Shown here in pieces: positions 3,244 to 13,647 of a stretch of 37,729 bases of DNA (its first letter is position 1; the number at the start of each line of letters is the position of its first letter). The notes below the pieces were generated by a model. The model was not told the DNA's origin. It ran no database searches and saw only the letters and a list, made by a program, of their open reading frames with translations. Source of the DNA: Escherichia coli (GTDB taxonomy: Bacteria; Pseudomonadota; Gammaproteobacteria; Enterobacterales; Enterobacteriaceae). The position numbers and the translations under genes are program-made. Where the stretch lies: the NCBI RefSeq assembly GCF_003334405.1, contig NZ_QOWM01000026.1; one strand, 5' to 3'.

Positions 3244-3606
3244 ACTCCCATTCTTACTTTGTAACAAGCCGGTGCTTTACCCACCGGCTTGTTACCCTCT
3301 TAAACTATCCCACTAATAATCATGCTTACTTAAGTCAAATTAACCACACTTAGTTAAACAGCCATAAATCCCTAATAAAAATGTATGAATATGAAAAACC
3401 ATACGATATTCGCTGTCACCGAAAAATAATTACGATGGGCTATACTCTTCTGAAGAACAGTAGCGTAGATTGAAACTGTCCTAAATCGCTTATTTCTTTT
3501 CAGTATATCTTCATATTTCAGGAGAATATGGTGCAGTTAGTCGATCTCGCACGTTGCGTTTCATTTTGATTCCGTCTGATTTCCCAGCCTTATAAGGGTG
3601 TGAATT

Positions 3607-5013: not shown

Positions 5014-7413
5014 ATGAAGCTAACCGATGCGGATAATGCCGCCGATGGCATTTTTTTCCCCGCCCTTGAGCAAAATATGATGGGTGCGGTGTTAATTAAC
5101 GAAAATGATGAAGTGATGTTTTTCAACCCCGCCGCAGAGAAGCTCTGGGGATACAAACGTGAAGAAGTCATTGGCAATAACATTGATATGCTGATTCCGC
5201 GGGATTTGCGTCCTGCGCATCCTGAATACATTCGTCACAACCGTGAAGGCGGTAAAGCGCGTGTTGAGGGGATGAGTCGGGAGCTGCAGCTGGAGAAAAA
5301 AGACGGCAGTAAAATCTGGACCCGTTTTGCGCTATCGAAAGTGAGCGCCGAGGGGAAAGTTTATTACCTGGCGCTGGTACGGGATGCCAGCGTAGAAATG
5401 GCGCAAAAAGAACAGACCCGACAATTGATTATTGCCGTTGACCATCTCGACCGACCGGTGATTGTCCTCGATCCGGAACGCCATATTGTGCAGTGCAATC
5501 GCGCATTTACCGAAATGTTTGGTTACTGCATTAGCGAAGCCAGCGGTATGCAGCCCGATACACTCCTGAACATTCCTGAATTCCCTGCCGATAACCGCAT
5601 TCGTTTACAACAGTTGCTATGGAAAACCGCCCGCGATCAGGACGAATTTCTGCTGTTGACGCGCACCGGTGAAAAAATCTGGATTAAAGCCTCTATCAGC
5701 CCGGTTTATGACGTGCTCGCGCATCTGCAGAACCTGGTAATGACTTTCTCGGATATCACCGAAGAACGGCAGATTCGCCAGCTTGAAGGCAATATTCTCG
5801 CCGCCATGTGCAGCAGCCCGCCATTTCATGAAATGGGGGAAATCATTTGTCGTAACATCGAATCTGTACTCAACGAATCGCATGTTTCGCTGTTCGCACT
5901 GCGCAACGGGATGCCGATACACTGGGCGTCATCTTCCCACGGTGCAGAAATTCAAAATGCGCAAAGCTGGTCAGCGACCATTCGTCAGCGTGATGGCGCG
6001 CCTGCGGGGATCCTGCAAATTAAAACCTCGTCAGGAGCAGAAACCAGCGCCTTTATCGAACGCGTGGCAGATATCAGCCAGCATATGGCCGCGCTGGCGC
6101 TGGAACAGGAAAAAAGCCGTCAGCATATTGAACAACTCATCCAATTTGATCCGATGACCGGTCTGCCAAATCGCAATAACCTGCACAATTACCTCGATGA
6201 CCTGGTCGACAAAGCCGTCTCTCCCGTGGTGTATCTCATCGGTGTTGACCATATTCAGGATGTGATTGATAGCCTTGGCTATGCGTGGGCCGATCAGGCA
6301 TTGCTGGAAGTGGTCAATCGCTTTCGTGAAAAACTCAAACCGGATCAGTATCTCTGTCGTATCGAAGGTACGCAGTTTGTCCTCGTGAGCCTCGAAAACG
6401 ACGTCAGTAACATTACCCAAATCGCCGATGAGCTACGGAATGTGGTCAGCAAGCCGATAATGATTGACGATAAACCCTTCCCGCTTACCTTGAGTATTGG
6501 CATCAGCTACGACCTGGGTAAAAACCGCGATTACTTGCTCTCCACTGCTCACAATGCAATGGATTATATTCGCAAGAATGGCGGTAACGGCTGGCAGTTC
6601 TTCAGCCCGGCGATGAACGAAATGGTAAAAGAGCGTTTGGTTTTAGGCGCAGCGCTGAAAGAAGCGATTAGCAATAACCAACTGAAACTGGTTTACCAGC
6701 CGCAAATCTTCGCAGAAACGGGTGAACTGTACGGCATCGAAGCCCTTGCTCGCTGGCACGATCCCCTGCATGGTCATGTGCCCCCTTCACGGTTTATTCC
6801 TCTCGCAGAAGAGATTGGTGAAATCGAAAATATTGGGCGCTGGGTCATCGCGGAAGCTTGCCGTCAGTTAGCAGAATGGCGTAGCCAGAATATTCATATC
6901 CCGGCGTTATCCGTGAACTTGTCGGCGCTGCACTTTCGCAGTAATCAACTGCCTAATCAGGTGTCTGATGCAATGCACGCCTGGGGTATTGACGGCCACC
7001 AGCTGACGGTAGAAATCACGGAAAGCATGATGATGGAACACGATACCGAAATCTTTAAGCGCATTCAGATCCTGCGTGATATGGGCGTGGGCTTATCGGT
7101 AGATGATTTTGGTACGGGCTTTTCCGGATTATCCCGCTTAGTCAGTCTTCCGGTAACGGAAATCAAAATTGACAAAAGTTTTGTCGATCGTTGTCTGACC
7201 GAAAAACGCATCCTTGCCTTACTTGAAGCCATTACCAGCATTGGGCAAAGCCTCAATTTAACCGTCGTGGCGGAAGGCGTCGAAACCAAAGAGCAATTTG
7301 AGATGCTACGCAAGATCCACTGTCGCGTTATTCAGGGATATTTCTTTTCCCGCCCCCTACCCGCCGAAGAAATTCCAGGCTGGATGAGCAGCGTGTTACC
7401 GCTGAAAATCTGA
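5014..7413 (+). CDS. dosP: heme-PAS oxygen-sensing c-di-GMP phosphodiesterase (PAS-PAS-GGDEF-EAL)
   Basis: ORF track 807 aa from ATG 4990; I place the start at ATG 5014 (MKLTDADNAADG..., 799 aa) because GAGG lies 5 nt upstream; EAL-domain motifs in C-terminal half. Confidence 0.9.
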   Translation: MKLTDADNAADGIFFPALEQNMMGAVLINENDEVMFFNPAAEKLWGYKREEVIGNNIDMLIPRDLRPAHPEYIRHNREGGKARVEGMSRELQLEKKDGSKIWTRFALSKVSAEGKVYYLALVRDASVEMAQKEQTRQLIIAVDHLDRPVIVLDPERHIVQCNRAFTEMFGYCISEASGMQPDTLLNIPEFPADNRIRLQQLLWKTARDQDEFLLLTRTGEKIWIKASISPVYDVLAHLQNLVMTFSDITEERQIRQLEGNILAAMCSSPPFHEMGEIICRNIESVLNESHVSLFALRNGMPIHWASSSHGAEIQNAQSWSATIRQRDGAPAGILQIKTSSGAETSAFIERVADISQHMAALALEQEKSRQHIEQLIQFDPMTGLPNRNNLHNYLDDLVDKAVSPVVYLIGVDHIQDVIDSLGYAWADQALLEVVNRFREKLKPDQYLCRIEGTQFVLVSLENDVSNITQIADELRNVVSKPIMIDDKPFPLTLSIGISYDLGKNRDYLLSTAHNAMDYIRKNGGNGWQFFSPAMNEMVKERLVLGAALKEAISNNQLKLVYQPQIFAETGELYGIEALARWHDPLHGHVPPSRFIPLAEEIGEIENIGRWVIAEACRQLAEWRSQNIHIPALSVNLSALHFRSNQLPNQVSDAMHAWGIDGHQLTVEITESMMMEHDTEIFKRIQILRDMGVGLSVDDFGTGFSGLSRLVSLPVTEIKIDKSFVDRCLTEKRILALLEAITSIGQSLNLTVVAEGVETKEQFEMLRKIHCRVIQGYFFSRPLPAEEIPGWMSSVLPLKI

Positions 7414-7425
7414 CAAATTCCTCTC

Positions 7426-7449
7426 GCCCGCACTCGCGGGTTTTCATTT
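7426..7449 (+). terminator. candidate terminator after dosP
   Basis: Short GC stem cccgc / gcggg (loop actc) followed by ttttcattt; 13 nt after dosP stop. Confidence 0.4.
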
Positions 7450-7522
7450 AACGTGACACTGTCACTTAAATACTGTGATTTCAGCTACGATTCCGGGAGA
7501 TTCCTTCCTTAACTTCCCCTCT

Positions 7523-7549
7523 TGCACCAAAACTGCACTACGCTGCACA
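7523..7549 (+). promoter_or_regulatory. three TGCAC repeats, candidate NtrC-type enhancer sites for ddp operon
   Basis: TGCACC (7523), TGCACT (7534), TGCACA (7544) about 65-90 bp upstream of the sigma54-like element; resembles NtrC half-sites (TGCACC...GGTGCA). Confidence 0.3.
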
Positions 7550-7610
7550 AATGTTGATCAAAAGTTAAAAAATATAACTTTAAGCCAGCATTCTGGCGCT
7601 TATCCCGGCA

Positions 7611-7626
7611 TGGCATGAGATCTGCA
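7611..7626 (+). promoter_or_regulatory. sigma54 (-24/-12) type promoter upstream of ddpX
   Basis: TGGCATgagatcTGCA: GG and GC dinucleotides at the exact consensus spacing (TGGCACG-N4-TTGC); about 45 bp upstream of ddpX ATG. Confidence 0.5.
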
Positions 7627-7670
7627 TAAGCGGAAAGCGCAGCAATTTTTGTCTTATACAGGAACCGTTT

Positions 7671-8252
7671 ATGTCGGATACCACCGAACTGGTTGATTTA
7701 GCCGTAATCTTCCCTGATCTGGAGATCGAATTGAAATACGCCTGCGCTGATAACATCACAGGTAAAGCTATTTATCAGCAAGCGCGTTGTCTGTTACACA
7801 AGGATGCGATTACCGCGCTGGCGAAAAGTATCAGCATCGCCCAGCTGTCAGGGTTACAACTGGTGATTTACGATGCGTATCGCCCACAACAAGCACAGGC
7901 GATGTTGTGGCAAGCCTGCCCAGACCCGCAATATGTTGTTGATGTGACGGTCGGTTCTAATCACAGCCGTGGCACGGCGATCGACCTGACGCTTCGTGAT
8001 GAGCACGGGAACATCCTCGATATGGGCGCAGGGTTCGATGAAATGCACGAGCGCTCCCATGCCTATCACCCTTCCGTCCCGCCCGCCGCTCAGCGCAATC
8101 GGCTGTTGCTGAATGCGATAATGACTGGTGGCGGTTTTGTCGGTATCTCCAGCGAATGGTGGCACTTCGAATTACCCCAGGCAGCGAGTTACCCTCTGCT
8201 CGCTGATCAATTCTCTTGTTTTATATCCCCTGGCACACAGCACGTCAGTTAA
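7671..8252 (+). CDS. ddpX: D-Ala-D-Ala dipeptidase (VanX homologue)
   Basis: ORF track 193 aa; recognised as DdpX; first gene of ddp operon. Confidence 0.93.
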   Translation: MSDTTELVDLAVIFPDLEIELKYACADNITGKAIYQQARCLLHKDAITALAKSISIAQLSGLQLVIYDAYRPQQAQAMLWQACPDPQYVVDVTVGSNHSRGTAIDLTLRDEHGNILDMGAGFDEMHERSHAYHPSVPPAAQRNRLLLNAIMTGGGFVGISSEWWHFELPQAASYPLLADQFSCFISPGTQHVS

Positions 8253-8265
8253 TCAGGAAACTGTC

Positions 8266-9816
8266 ATGAAGAGATCGATATCGTTTCGTCCCACATTGCT
8301 CGCGCTCGTCCTTGCCACAAATTTCCCGGTTGCGCACGCCGCCGTACCAAAAGATATGCTGGTGATTGGTAAGGCCGCCGATCCACAAACCCTCGACCCG
8401 GCGGTAACAATAGATAATAACGACTGGACAGTGACCTACCCGTCTTATCAGCGGCTGGTTCAGTACAAAACGGACGGTGATAAAGGCTCAACCGACGTTG
8501 AAGGCGATCTGGCAAGTAGCTGGAAAGCGTCTGACGATCAAAAAGAGTGGACGTTCACCCTGAAAGATAATGCTAAATTTGCCGATGGCACACCTGTCAC
8601 TGCCGAAGCAGTAAAACTTTCTTTTGAGCGGCTACTAAAAATCGGCCAGGGGCCAGCAGAAGCATTTCCCAAAGATTTAAAGATTGATGCTCCCGACGAA
8701 CATACGGTGAAGTTTACCCTTAGCCAACCATTCGCACCGTTCCTCTACACGCTGGCGAATGACGGTGCATCCATTATCAATCCGGCGGTCTTAAAGGAAC
8801 ATGCAGCGGATGATGCTCGCGGCTTCCTCGCGCAAAATACCGCCGGTTCCGGACCATTTATGCTGAAAAGCTGGCAAAAAGGTCAGCAATTAGTTCTGGT
8901 GCCAAATCCGCATTACCCAGGCAATAAACCGAACTTCAAACGGGTATCGGTAAAAATTATTGGTGAAAGTGCCTCCCGTCGCCTGCAGCTCTCCCGTGGC
9001 GACATTGACATTGCCGATGCGCTGCCGGTGGATCAACTCAACGCCCTGAAGCAGGAAAATAAAGTCAATGTGGCAGAGTATCCGTCACTGCGCGTTACCT
9101 ATCTGTATCTGAATAACAGCAAAGCGCCTCTTAATCAGGCGGATCTGCGTCGGGCCATTTCCTGGTCTACCGATTATCAGGGCATGGTTAACGGCATTCT
9201 GAGTGGTAACGGAAAACAGATGCGCGGCCCGATTCCGGAAGGCATGTGGGGCTACGATGCGACGGCAATGCAATACAACCATGACGAAACGAAAGCCAAA
9301 GCCGAATGGGATAAAGTGACGAGCAAACCCACCAGCCTGACGTTTCTCTACTCCGATAACGATCCGAACTGGGAGCCTATTGCTCTGGCGACACAATCCA
9401 GTCTCAACAAGCTGGGCATCATTGTGAAGCTGGAAAAGCTGGCGAACGCCACCATGCGCGACAGAGTGGGTAAAGGTGATTACGACATTGCGATTGGCAA
9501 CTGGAGTCCGGATTTTGCCGACCCGTATATGTTTATGAATTACTGGTTTGAGTCAGACAAAAAAGGTCTGCCGGGTAACCGCTCGTTCTATGAAAACAGT
9601 GAGGTCGATAAGTTACTGCGCAATGCGCTTGCGACCACCGACCAGACGCAGCGTACCCGGGACTACCAGCAGGCACAGAAAATCGTCATTGATGACGCTG
9701 CTTATGTGTACCTGTTCCAGAAAAACTACCAACTGGCGATGAACAAAGAGGTGAAAGGCTTTGTGTTCAATCCCATGCTGGAACAGGTCTTCAATATCAA
9801 TACCATGAGTAAATAA
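8266..9816 (+). CDS. ddpA: periplasmic D-Ala-D-Ala/dipeptide binding protein of ABC transporter
   Basis: ORF track gives 562 aa from 8128 overlapping ddpX; I use internal ATG 8266 (MKRSISFRPTLLALVLATNFPVAHA, a typical signal peptide), giving 516 aa. Confidence 0.9.
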   Translation: MKRSISFRPTLLALVLATNFPVAHAAVPKDMLVIGKAADPQTLDPAVTIDNNDWTVTYPSYQRLVQYKTDGDKGSTDVEGDLASSWKASDDQKEWTFTLKDNAKFADGTPVTAEAVKLSFERLLKIGQGPAEAFPKDLKIDAPDEHTVKFTLSQPFAPFLYTLANDGASIINPAVLKEHAADDARGFLAQNTAGSGPFMLKSWQKGQQLVLVPNPHYPGNKPNFKRVSVKIIGESASRRLQLSRGDIDIADALPVDQLNALKQENKVNVAEYPSLRVTYLYLNNSKAPLNQADLRRAISWSTDYQGMVNGILSGNGKQMRGPIPEGMWGYDATAMQYNHDETKAKAEWDKVTSKPTSLTFLYSDNDPNWEPIALATQSSLNKLGIIVKLEKLANATMRDRVGKGDYDIAIGNWSPDFADPYMFMNYWFESDKKGLPGNRSFYENSEVDKLLRNALATTDQTQRTRDYQQAQKIVIDDAAYVYLFQKNYQLAMNKEVKGFVFNPMLEQVFNINTMSK

Positions 9817-9817
9817 C

Positions 9818-10840
9818 GTGACCTTCTGGAGTATTTTACGCCAACGCTGCTGGGGGCTGGTGCTCGTGGTGGCGGGCGTCTGCGTGATTACGTTTATTAT
9901 CTCGCATCTGATCCCTGGTGATCCGGCGCGGTTACTGGCGGGTGACCGCGCCAGCGATGCTATCGTGGAAAATATTCGCCAGCAACTGGGACTGGACCAG
10001 CCACTGTATGTACAGTTTTACCGCTACGTCAGCGACCTGTTTCATGGTGACCTGGGAACATCCATTCGTACCGGGCGTCCGGTGCTGGAAGAGTTGCGTA
10101 TATTTTTCCCGGCGACGCTGGAGCTGGCTTTTGGTGCCCTGCTGCTGGCACTCCTGATTGGCATCCCGCTGGGCATACTCTCTGCAGTCTGGCGAAATCG
10201 CTGGCTGGATCATCTGGTGCGAATAATGGCCATTACCGGAATCTCCACACCTGCGTTCTGGCTTGGGCTGGGCGTCATTGTGCTGTTTTATGGTCATCTG
10301 CAAATTCTTCCCGGCGGCGGAAGGCTTGATGACTGGCTGGATCCACCAACGCACGTTACCGGCTTTTATCTGCTCGATGCGCTGCTTGAAGGCAACGGTG
10401 AAGTCTTCTTCAATGCGTTGCAACATCTCATCTTACCGGCATTAACGCTGGCGTTCGTTCACCTGGGAATTGTCGCTCGCCAGATCCGCTCAGCGATGCT
10501 GGAACAATTGAGTGAAGACTACATTCGTACCGCCCGGGCCAGCGGCTTGCCCGGCTGGTATATCGTTTTATGTTATGCGCTACCCAATGCGTTGATCCCA
10601 TCGATTACCGTATTGGGTTTGGCGCTGGGCGATTTGTTGTATGGCGCAGTGCTCACCGAAACCGTTTTTGCCTGGCCCGGAATGGGTGCATGGGTAGTAA
10701 CATCAATACAGGCGCTCGACTTCCCGGCAGTGATGGGCTTTGCCGTCGTGGTTTCATTTGCTTATGTGCTGGTCAACCTGGTGGTGGATTTGCTCTATTT
10801 GTGGATTGATCCGCGTATCGGACGTGGAGGTGGTGAATGA
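9818..10840 (+). CDS. ddpB: ABC transporter permease
   Basis: ORF track 340 aa; GTG start 2 nt after ddpA stop; DppB-like permease. Confidence 0.9.
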   Translation: MTFWSILRQRCWGLVLVVAGVCVITFIISHLIPGDPARLLAGDRASDAIVENIRQQLGLDQPLYVQFYRYVSDLFHGDLGTSIRTGRPVLEELRIFFPATLELAFGALLLALLIGIPLGILSAVWRNRWLDHLVRIMAITGISTPAFWLGLGVIVLFYGHLQILPGGGRLDDWLDPPTHVTGFYLLDALLEGNGEVFFNALQHLILPALTLAFVHLGIVARQIRSAMLEQLSEDYIRTARASGLPGWYIVLCYALPNALIPSITVLGLALGDLLYGAVLTETVFAWPGMGAWVVTSIQALDFPAVMGFAVVVSFAYVLVNLVVDLLYLWIDPRIGRGGGE

Positions 10841-11733
10841 TGCTAAGCGAGGAAACGTCCGCCGTACGCCCACAAAAACAAACGCGATTTAACGGTGCAA
10901 AACTGGTATGGATGCTGAAAGGCAGTCCGCTCACCGTGACCAGCGCAGTCATCATTGTATTAATGCTATTGATGATGATTTTTTCACCGTGGCTGGCGAC
11001 GCATGATCCCAACGCCATTGATTTAACCGCCCGCCTTTTGCCGCCTTCTGCGGCGCACTGGTTTGGCACCGATGAAGTGGGACGCGATCTGTTTAGCCGC
11101 GTACTGGTCGGCAGTCAGCAATCAATTCTCGCCGGATTAGTCGTGGTTGCCATTGCGGGTATGATTGGTTCGCTACTCGGATGTCTATCCGGTGTGCTTG
11201 GTGGACGCGCAGACGCCATCATCATGCGCATCATGGACATTATGCTGTCGATTCCTTCGTTGGTACTGACAATGGCACTGGCTGCCGCTCTCGGGCCGAG
11301 TTTGTTTAACGCCATGCTGGCTATTGCTATTGTGCGAATTCCCTTTTATGTGCGCCTGGCGCGGGGGCAAGCATTAGTTGTACGCCAGTATACCTATGTT
11401 CAGGCGGCGAAAACCTTTGGCGCGTCTCGTTGGCATCTGATCAACTGGCATATTTTACGTAACTCCCTACCGCCGCTGATCGTGCAGGCATCGCTGGATA
11501 TCGGTAGCGCGATTTTAATGGCCGCCACGTTGGGATTTATTGGCCTGGGTGCTCAACAACCGAGTGCTGAATGGGGCGCGATGGTAGCAAATGGTCGCAA
11601 CTATGTACTCGATCAGTGGTGGTATTGCGCATTTCCGGGGGCAGCGATTTTGCTTACCGCCGTCGGGTTTAATCTCTTTGGTGATGGTATTCGCGATCTG
11701 CTTGACCCGAAAGCAGGAGGAAAGCAGTCATGA
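10837..11733 (+). CDS. ddpC: ABC transporter permease
   Basis: ORF track 298 aa; ATG overlaps ddpB stop (ATGA); DppC-like permease. Confidence 0.9.
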   Translation: MMLSEETSAVRPQKQTRFNGAKLVWMLKGSPLTVTSAVIIVLMLLMMIFSPWLATHDPNAIDLTARLLPPSAAHWFGTDEVGRDLFSRVLVGSQQSILAGLVVVAIAGMIGSLLGCLSGVLGGRADAIIMRIMDIMLSIPSLVLTMALAAALGPSLFNAMLAIAIVRIPFYVRLARGQALVVRQYTYVQAAKTFGASRWHLINWHILRNSLPPLIVQASLDIGSAILMAATLGFIGLGAQQPSAEWGAMVANGRNYVLDQWWYCAFPGAAILLTAVGFNLFGDGIRDLLDPKAGGKQS

Positions 11734-12716
11734 CCCAACCCGTTCTGGACATTCAACAACTGCATTTGAGTTTCCCCGGTTTTAACGGTGATGTTCACGC
11801 GCTCAACAATGTGTCCTTGCAGATTAACCGCGGTGAAATTGTCGGTCTGGTGGGAGAATCCGGCTCAGGTAAATCAGTCACCGCAATGCTGATTATGCGT
11901 CTGCTACCGACGGGCAGTTATTGCGTACATCGGGGGCAGATTTCCCTGCTGGGAGAAGATGTTCTTAACGCGCGGGAAAAACAGCTTCGTCAGTGGCGCG
12001 GCGCACGAGTGGCGATGATCTTTCAGGAACCGATGACCGCCCTCAATCCGACACGTCGAATAGGTCTTCAGATGATGGACGTGATCCGCCATCATCAACC
12101 AATAAGTCGTCGGGAAGCCAGAGCTAAAGCGATTGACCTGCTGGAAGAGATGCAAATCCCGGATGCCGTGGAAGTTATGTCGCGCTATCCGTTTGAGCTT
12201 TCAGGTGGTATGCGCCAGCGGGTAATGATTGCGCTGGCATTCTCCTGCGAGCCGCAATTGATTATTGCCGACGAACCGACTACGGCGCTGGACGTCACGG
12301 TGCAGTTGCAGGTACTGCGTTTGCTTAAACATAAAGCCCGCGCCAGTGGAACTGCGGTTCTGTTCATCAGCCATGATATGGCCGTGGTGTCGCAACTGTG
12401 CGATAGCGTTTACGTGATGTATGCCGGAAGCGTAATTGAAAGCGGCGTGACGGCAGACGTTATCCATCATCCCCGGCATCCGTATACCATTGGTTTGCTG
12501 CAATGCGCACCAGAACATGGAGTACCACGCCAGCTATTACCCGCCATTCCAGGGACGGTACCAAACCTCACCCATTTGCCTGACGGCTGCGCTTTTCGCG
12601 ATCGTTGCTATGCGGCAGGTGCACAGTGTGAAAACGTCCCGGCGCTGACAGCGTGTGGTGACAACAACCAGCGCTGTGCCTGTTGGTATCCGCAGCAGGA
12701 GGTTATAAGTGTCTGA
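11730..12716 (+). CDS. ddpD: ABC transporter ATP-binding protein
   Basis: ORF track 328 aa; Walker A GESGSGKS; AGGAGG upstream of ATG; start overlaps ddpC stop. Confidence 0.92.
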   Translation: MTQPVLDIQQLHLSFPGFNGDVHALNNVSLQINRGEIVGLVGESGSGKSVTAMLIMRLLPTGSYCVHRGQISLLGEDVLNAREKQLRQWRGARVAMIFQEPMTALNPTRRIGLQMMDVIRHHQPISRREARAKAIDLLEEMQIPDAVEVMSRYPFELSGGMRQRVMIALAFSCEPQLIIADEPTTALDVTVQLQVLRLLKHKARASGTAVLFISHDMAVVSQLCDSVYVMYAGSVIESGVTADVIHHPRHPYTIGLLQCAPEHGVPRQLLPAIPGTVPNLTHLPDGCAFRDRCYAAGAQCENVPALTACGDNNQRCACWYPQQEVISV

Positions 12717-13635
12717 CACGTTATTAACGTTACGCGACGTCCATATCAATTTCCCGGCCCGTAAAAACTGGCTTGGTAAAACTACGGAACATGTTCATGC
12801 CATTAATGGTATTGATTTACAGATCCGCCGTGGTGAAACCTTAGGGATCGTCGGCGAGTCAGGCTGCGGCAAAAGCACCCTCGCACAGCTTTTAATGGGT
12901 ATGCTGCAACCGAGCCACGGGCAGTACATCCGTTCTGGCTCACAACGCATTATGCAGATGGTGTTTCAGGACCCGCTCTCTTCGCTTAATCCGCGCTTAC
13001 CGGTGTGGCGCATCATCACAGAACCGCTCTGGATAGCTAAGCGTAGTAGTGAACAACAGCGGCGAGCGTTGGCAGAGGAGTTGGCTGTGCAGGTGGGTAT
13101 TCGTCCGGAGTATCTCGACCGCCTGCCTCATGCGTTCTCCGGCGGGCAGCGGCAACGTATCGCCATTGCCAGAGCACTCTCTTCGCAGCCTGACGTGATT
13201 GTGCTTGATGAGCCAACCTCTGCGCTGGATATCTCCGTTCAGGCGCAGATCCTCAATTTACTGGTAACGCTACAGGAAAATCACGGGCTGACCTATGTGC
13301 TGATTTCACACAATGTCTCGGTGATACGTCATATGAGCGATCGGGTGGCGGTGATGTATCTCGGGCAGATTGTAGAACTGGGCGACGCGCAGCAGGTGCT
13401 GACGGCACCTGCACATCCATACACCCGATTATTGCTGGATTCCCTCCCCGCCATTGATAAACCGCTGGAGGAAGAATGGGCATTACGTAAAACGGATCTG
13501 CCGGGAAACCGCACGTTGCCGCAAGGCTGTTTTTTCTACGAACGTTGCCCGCTGGCAACCCACGGATGTGAAGTCCGGCAATCATTAGCAATAAGGGAGG
13601 ACGGACGTGAGCTCCGGTGCTGGCGGGCGCTGTAG
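12709..13635 (+). CDS. ddpF: ABC transporter ATP-binding protein
   Basis: ORF track 308 aa; GTG start with AGGAGG upstream; Walker A GESGCGKS; overlaps ddpD end. Confidence 0.92.
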   Translation: MSDTLLTLRDVHINFPARKNWLGKTTEHVHAINGIDLQIRRGETLGIVGESGCGKSTLAQLLMGMLQPSHGQYIRSGSQRIMQMVFQDPLSSLNPRLPVWRIITEPLWIAKRSSEQQRRALAEELAVQVGIRPEYLDRLPHAFSGGQRQRIAIARALSSQPDVIVLDEPTSALDISVQAQILNLLVTLQENHGLTYVLISHNVSVIRHMSDRVAVMYLGQIVELGDAQQVLTAPAHPYTRLLLDSLPAIDKPLEEEWALRKTDLPGNRTLPQGCFFYERCPLATHGCEVRQSLAIREDGRELRCWRAL

Positions 13636-13647
13636 AGATGCTAACAA

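Follow-up and report, generated by a model that had tools for sequence, protein, structure and literature searches.

The Ter macrodomain of the Escherichia coli chromosome is recognized by the protein MatP through a 13-bp target, matS, for which a review (PMC3116907) that cites Mercier et al. 2008 gives 23 copies in this macrodomain and the consensus GTGAC[A/G]N[T/C]GTCAC. A set of 28 matS sites, derived from three independent MatP ChIP-seq experiments, was reported by Seba et al. 2024 (eLife, PMC10945525), with matS1 at 1,136,538 and matS28 at 1,974,386 as the outermost members and a density of approximately 3 sites per 100 kb that is higher near dif. Supplementary file 1 of that study contains the entries 'matS13 1563282 bp' and 'matS12 1536807 bp'; a list of matS coordinates was also sought in the supplement of Nolivos et al. 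2016, the accessible part of which did not contain one. In EMSA experiments with MatP, Crozat et al. 2020 used a matS probe with the sequence GTGACAGTGTCAC, which is GTGACACTGTCAC read on the other strand.

Several other proteins that position or organize chromosomes have comparable targets. The binding sites of the nucleoid occlusion protein SlmA (SBS) are, like matS, short palindromes recognized by a protein that positions the chromosome. The SBS, GTGAGTACTCAC, comprises 12 bp, its inner bases are unlike those of matS, and SlmA sites are depleted from Ter, where matS13 lies. The four outermost base pairs, GTGA...TCAC, are shared between the targets of MatP and SlmA (PMC3116907). The parS sites of ParB and the NBS sites of Noc (B. 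subtilis) are conceptually alike in being dispersed palindromes that mark a region of the chromosome for an organizing protein, but the proteins are unrelated to MatP, the sequences are different and the regions marked are origin-proximal or non-Ter.

Here we analyzed a palindrome between dosP and ddpX in a window of 37,729 nucleotides from E. coli, the whole stretch of DNA under study, which carries the gene order gadC-digH-dosC-dosP-ddpXABCDF-osmC-bdm-sra-maeA-adhP-yddM-fdnIHG-yddG...narU and additionally contains narZYWV. With matS13 of strain K-12, this palindrome has the 13-bp sequence, the location in Ter, the coordinate and the correspondence to the MatP EMSA probe in common, and strain-level SNPs in the flanks are the only differences.

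Sequence and position of the palindrome

The original prediction had described a perfect 13-bp inverted repeat between the terminator of dosP and the promoter region of ddp, and both the sequence and its placement were confirmed. The palindrome GTGACACTGTCAC consists of perfect 6-bp arms that flank a single central base, C, and stands in the context ...TTTAACGTGACACTGTCACTTAAAT...; beyond the arms, further symmetry is weak, with three of the next five positions able to pair. With the dosP ORF ending at 7413, the palindrome starts 40 bp beyond the stop codon and 12 bp beyond the hairpin of the dosP terminator, for which we calculated an RNA folding energy of -10.9 kcal/mol (z = -3.7). The sigma-54 promoter element of ddpXABCDF follows approximately 145 bp downstream, ahead of the ddpX ATG at 7671. 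The coordinates of these elements are compiled in Table 1.

Table 1. Coordinates and sequences of the features in and around the dosP-ddpX intergenic region and of natural variants of the palindrome. Positions refer to the window.
Feature	Sequence	Position	Strand	Remarks
dosP intrinsic terminator	hairpin GCCCGCACTCGCGGGT followed by TTTTC	7426..7445 (hairpin 7426-7441)	+	terminator scan; not part of matS
matS site, assigned to matS13	GTGACACTGTCAC	7453..7465	.	dosP-ddpX intergenic; K-12 MG1655 1,563,282-1,563,294; fits GTGACRNYGTCAC; coordinate equals the published one
sigma-54 (-24/-12) promoter of ddpXABCDF	ATGGCATGAGATCTGCA	7610..7626	+	pattern match
matS site, assigned to matS12	GTGACAGTGTCAC	33749..33761	.	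within narW coding sequence; K-12 MG1655 1,536,807-1,536,819
Core variant, strain 317	GTGACACCGTCAC			change at Y position; stays in matS consensus, loses 6-1-6 symmetry
Core variant, strain F467	GTGACGCTGTCAC			change at R position; stays in matS consensus, loses 6-1-6 symmetry
Core variant, strain PSJ-29	ATGACACTGTCAC			G-to-A at position 1; breaks matS consensus

As a class, perfect palindromes with two 6-bp arms and one central base are not enriched in the window. We counted 13, whereas 10.1 ± 3.0 were obtained in dinucleotide shuffles, which corresponds to chance level, and 9.2 are expected for independent bases. One of the other twelve, located in narW, has the same arms and corresponds exactly to the site between dosP and ddpX read on the opposite strand. 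When the window was searched with GTGACRNYGTCAC and one mismatch was allowed, these two sites (starting at 7453 and 33749) were the only matches, compared to 0.28 ± 0.45 expected in the shuffled window, and none of 100 shuffles reached two or more matches.

Identity of the palindrome

The palindrome matches the matS consensus without a mismatch. For both sites, we computed the positions in K-12 MG1655 (NC_000913.3), where the first lies between ddpX and dosP and the second in narW, and the start coordinates were exactly those published for matS13 and matS12, respectively. The window corresponds to approximately 1.535 to 1.571 Mb of MG1655 and thus to the middle of the Ter macrodomain (about 1.14-1.97 Mb). 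Within this 37.7-kb stretch, the two matS sites are 26.3 kb apart and hence regionally clustered. The copy in narW spans the codons Ser-Asp-Ser-Val-Thr.

We conclude that the palindrome is almost certainly matS13, the 13-bp target of MatP that is catalogued for E. coli K-12. This identity is based on the fit to the consensus, the enrichment of the motif, a coordinate equal to that of a site defined by ChIP-seq, and the pattern of conservation described below. The palindrome is therefore an already known chromosome-organization site and neither a gene regulator site nor a terminator. Of the earlier proposal that it might be bound by a dimeric regulator, the dimeric protein can be retained, since the site is a catalogued MatP target, whereas a function as transcriptional regulator site for ddp or dosCP cannot. 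Binding of MatP in the strain analyzed here and the mechanism downstream of binding are predicted on the basis of the literature. The matP gene (b0956) is annotated in K-12 MG1655 at 1,018,485-1,018,937, which is outside the window; its presence in the strain from which the window originates is expected from the species identity, as 100% matches to E. coli chromosomes were obtained.

Conservation and natural variants

A 321-bp query around the site found matches in 5392 of 5426 complete E. coli genomes, in which the annotation gives dosP followed by ddpX, and a 47-bp segment with the site at its centre was found in 5343 of the 5426. Among the 47-bp matches, 2644 were identical, 2626 had one or two mismatches and 74 had more. 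For an alignment of variants, 15 sequences were deliberately chosen mostly from the non-identical matches, and even in this biased sample the substitutions clustered in the flanks, namely at 7445, 7446, 7452, 7472, 7475 and 7484. Three core variants were present among the 15 sequences (Table 1), two of them with a change at a degenerate R or Y position and one with a change that breaks the consensus. Strain F467 (L093), which has one of these core variants, additionally carries a 7-bp tandem duplication (TTTTCAT TTTTCAT) in the U-tail of the dosP terminator, aligned to 7441-7447 of the window.

The original prediction had proposed to judge conservation by whether substitutions preserve the symmetry of the palindrome. 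For matS, this test is misleading because positions 6 and 8 of the consensus are degenerate (R and Y), and the variants of strains 317 and F467 break the symmetry and yet fit the consensus.

Approximately 1,176 of the 5,392 complete genomes matched the 321-bp query only over its first 110-113 bases, i.e. up to about position 7492. In three such strains, approximately 66 bp take the place of ddpXABCDF (7493-13646 of the window, 6.15 kb), which makes dosP and osmC convergent neighbours. This replacement (about 6113-6180 in loci L002, L003 and L004) contains a REP-like stretch. All three strains have retained matS unchanged, 28 bp before the breakpoint, indicating that the site neither forms part of the ddp promoter nor travels with it. 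In the same strains, dosC is annotated as a pseudogene remnant.

Across species, we compared the C-terminus of DosP with GTDB species representatives. Outside of E. coli sensu lato, the arrangement dosP-matS-ddp was found in one divergent Escherichia lineage only, represented by strain SCPM-O-B-8794. In E. albertii, strain E69, Kosakonia, Trabulsiella and Brenneria, dosP is followed by other DNA, and no matS was found within the 2.5-kb flanks. The DosP orthologs of the divergent genomes E. coli E69 (L006) and E. albertii (L007) are 93-95% identical at the amino-acid level in the C-terminal 299 residues; downstream of position 3397, the DNA of these two loci is entirely different, and neither a ddp operon nor matS was found within 2.5 kb. 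That matS is absent at an individual position outside of E. coli sensu lato is to be expected, since conservation concerns the regional population of matS sites and not each site singly, and the comparison across species is thus uninformative about function.

Alternative explanations

Being intergenic and symmetric, the palindrome could also be the operator of a dimeric transcription factor for ddpXABCDF or dosCP, for instance of a repressor or of a co-activator that cooperates with NtrC and sigma-54, and its distance to the sigma-54 promoter would suit enhancer-type action. We consider such a function extremely unlikely, as strains that lack the ddp operon together with its promoter still carry the unchanged site, an identical 13-mer is found within the coding sequence of narW, and the known control elements of ddpX are located downstream of the palindrome. 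The GTGA and TCAC cores are common to matS13 and to the half-sites of the CRP operator, which has the consensus TGTGA-N6-TCACA. However, the spacing is 5 in matS13 instead of 6, and the flanking T and A of the CRP operator are missing (cGTGA...TCACt). A comparison with this consensus by eye yielded no evidence of CRP control at the palindrome. Searches for NtrC sites (TGCACC-N4-TGGTGCA) and sigma-54 elements (TGGCAC-N5-TTGCW) gave no match that overlaps 7453-7465, the sigma-54 pattern matching at 7611-7626 instead, and a scan for sigma-70 promoters between 7300 and 7750 detected no sites, so that the GTGACA arms are not part of a recognizable -35/-10 pair. Furthermore, gene expression in Ter was reported to be unaffected by MatP even where the sites are intergenic, according to a review that cites Mercier et al. 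2008, which likewise argues against an operator.

If transcribed, the palindrome could give rise to a hairpin in the 3'-terminal part of the dosCP RNA, which might serve as an additional or back-up terminator or stabilize the transcript as a stem-loop. A stem of 5 bp that encloses a 3-nt loop and is lengthened by pairing of UUAA with UUAA was predicted to fold with -5.2 kcal/mol (z = -3.3), and the two benign core variants map to the loop. For this reason, the pattern of variation alone does not discriminate between matS and a hairpin with a 5-bp stem: both tolerated positions would fall into the 3-nt loop. What decides in favor of matS is the match to the ChIP-seq coordinate together with the location of the twin site within coding DNA, and a hairpin would leave both the 13-mer in narW and the coincidence of the coordinate unexplained. 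Moreover, a much stronger canonical terminator with a U-run is located upstream and is the only one called by the terminator scan. The palindrome is followed by UUAAAUAC, with no U-run on either strand, and thus does not have the GC-rich hairpin plus U-run of an intrinsic terminator. A scan of 7300-7750 against Rfam at E <= 10 found no matching family and returned merely two meaningless eukaryotic matches. Nor is the palindrome part of a bidirectional terminator, as had additionally been suggested, because dosP has its own, distinct terminator hairpin, and such an element would lack a rationale since dosP and ddpX are co-directional. We regard the probability of an RNA function as close to nil. 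An equally negligible probability is assigned to a chance occurrence without function, with which the frequency of 6-1-6 palindromes in the window would be compatible, but not the enrichment of the specific matS pattern, the publication of the site as bound by MatP, its presence in nearly all complete E. coli genomes, and a core that is less variable than the flanks.

Neighbouring elements

The sigma-54 element upstream of ddpX, ATGGCATGAGATCTGCA, is identical to the sigma-54 ChIP-seq site OS16 (Bonocora et al. 2015), and ddpX was reported to depend on NtrC and RpoN. Repeats of TGCACC/TGCAC (TTGCACCAAAACTGCACTACGCTGCACA) are located at 7522-7552, about 60-90 bp upstream of this promoter. These repeats probably serve NtrC as enhancer sites; they were not detected by a search with the strict NtrC consensus in which up to 3 mismatches were allowed. 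A second perfect sigma-54 -24/-12 consensus, CTGGCACTACCGTTGCA, was observed inside narY at 32726-32742 and is identical to the intragenic sigma-54 ChIP-seq site IS19, and hence already known (Bonocora et al. 2015). On the minus strand of the window, fdnG (20121-23168) is split into two ORFs, 20121-22532 and 22581-23168. The interruption is presumably caused by the in-frame UGA codon for selenocysteine that is known in formate dehydrogenase-N.

Proposed role of the site

Based on the literature about MatP, a dimer of this protein would bind both half-sites of matS13, GTGAC and GTCAC. The site is one of about 23-28 that are distributed over approximately 0.8-1 Mb of Ter and that together label this DNA as Ter. 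According to the literature, MatP bound to matS displaces or unloads the condensin MukBEF from Ter; inhibition of MukBEF was found to be graded, depending on how many matS sites there are and how densely they are placed (Seba et al. 2024, PMC10945525). In addition, MatP is reported to tie Ter to the division septum via ZapB, so that sister Ter regions are held at mid-cell and their segregation is delayed until division. The placement of matS13 between dosP and ddpX is incidental to both genes. It is very unlikely that MatP at matS13 might also act locally, either by blocking read-through from dosCP into ddp or by modulating NtrC-dependent looping. If such a local effect existed, expression of ddp would be coupled to the cell-cycle state of Ter.

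In the RefSeq records, the site is without any annotated feature, and a reader of the sequence will therefore probably mistake it for an orphan operator, a confusion that would be avoided if GTGACRNYGTCAC were flagged in windows from the Ter region. For the biology of E. coli, matS sites matter for the folding, positioning and segregation of the chromosome terminus.
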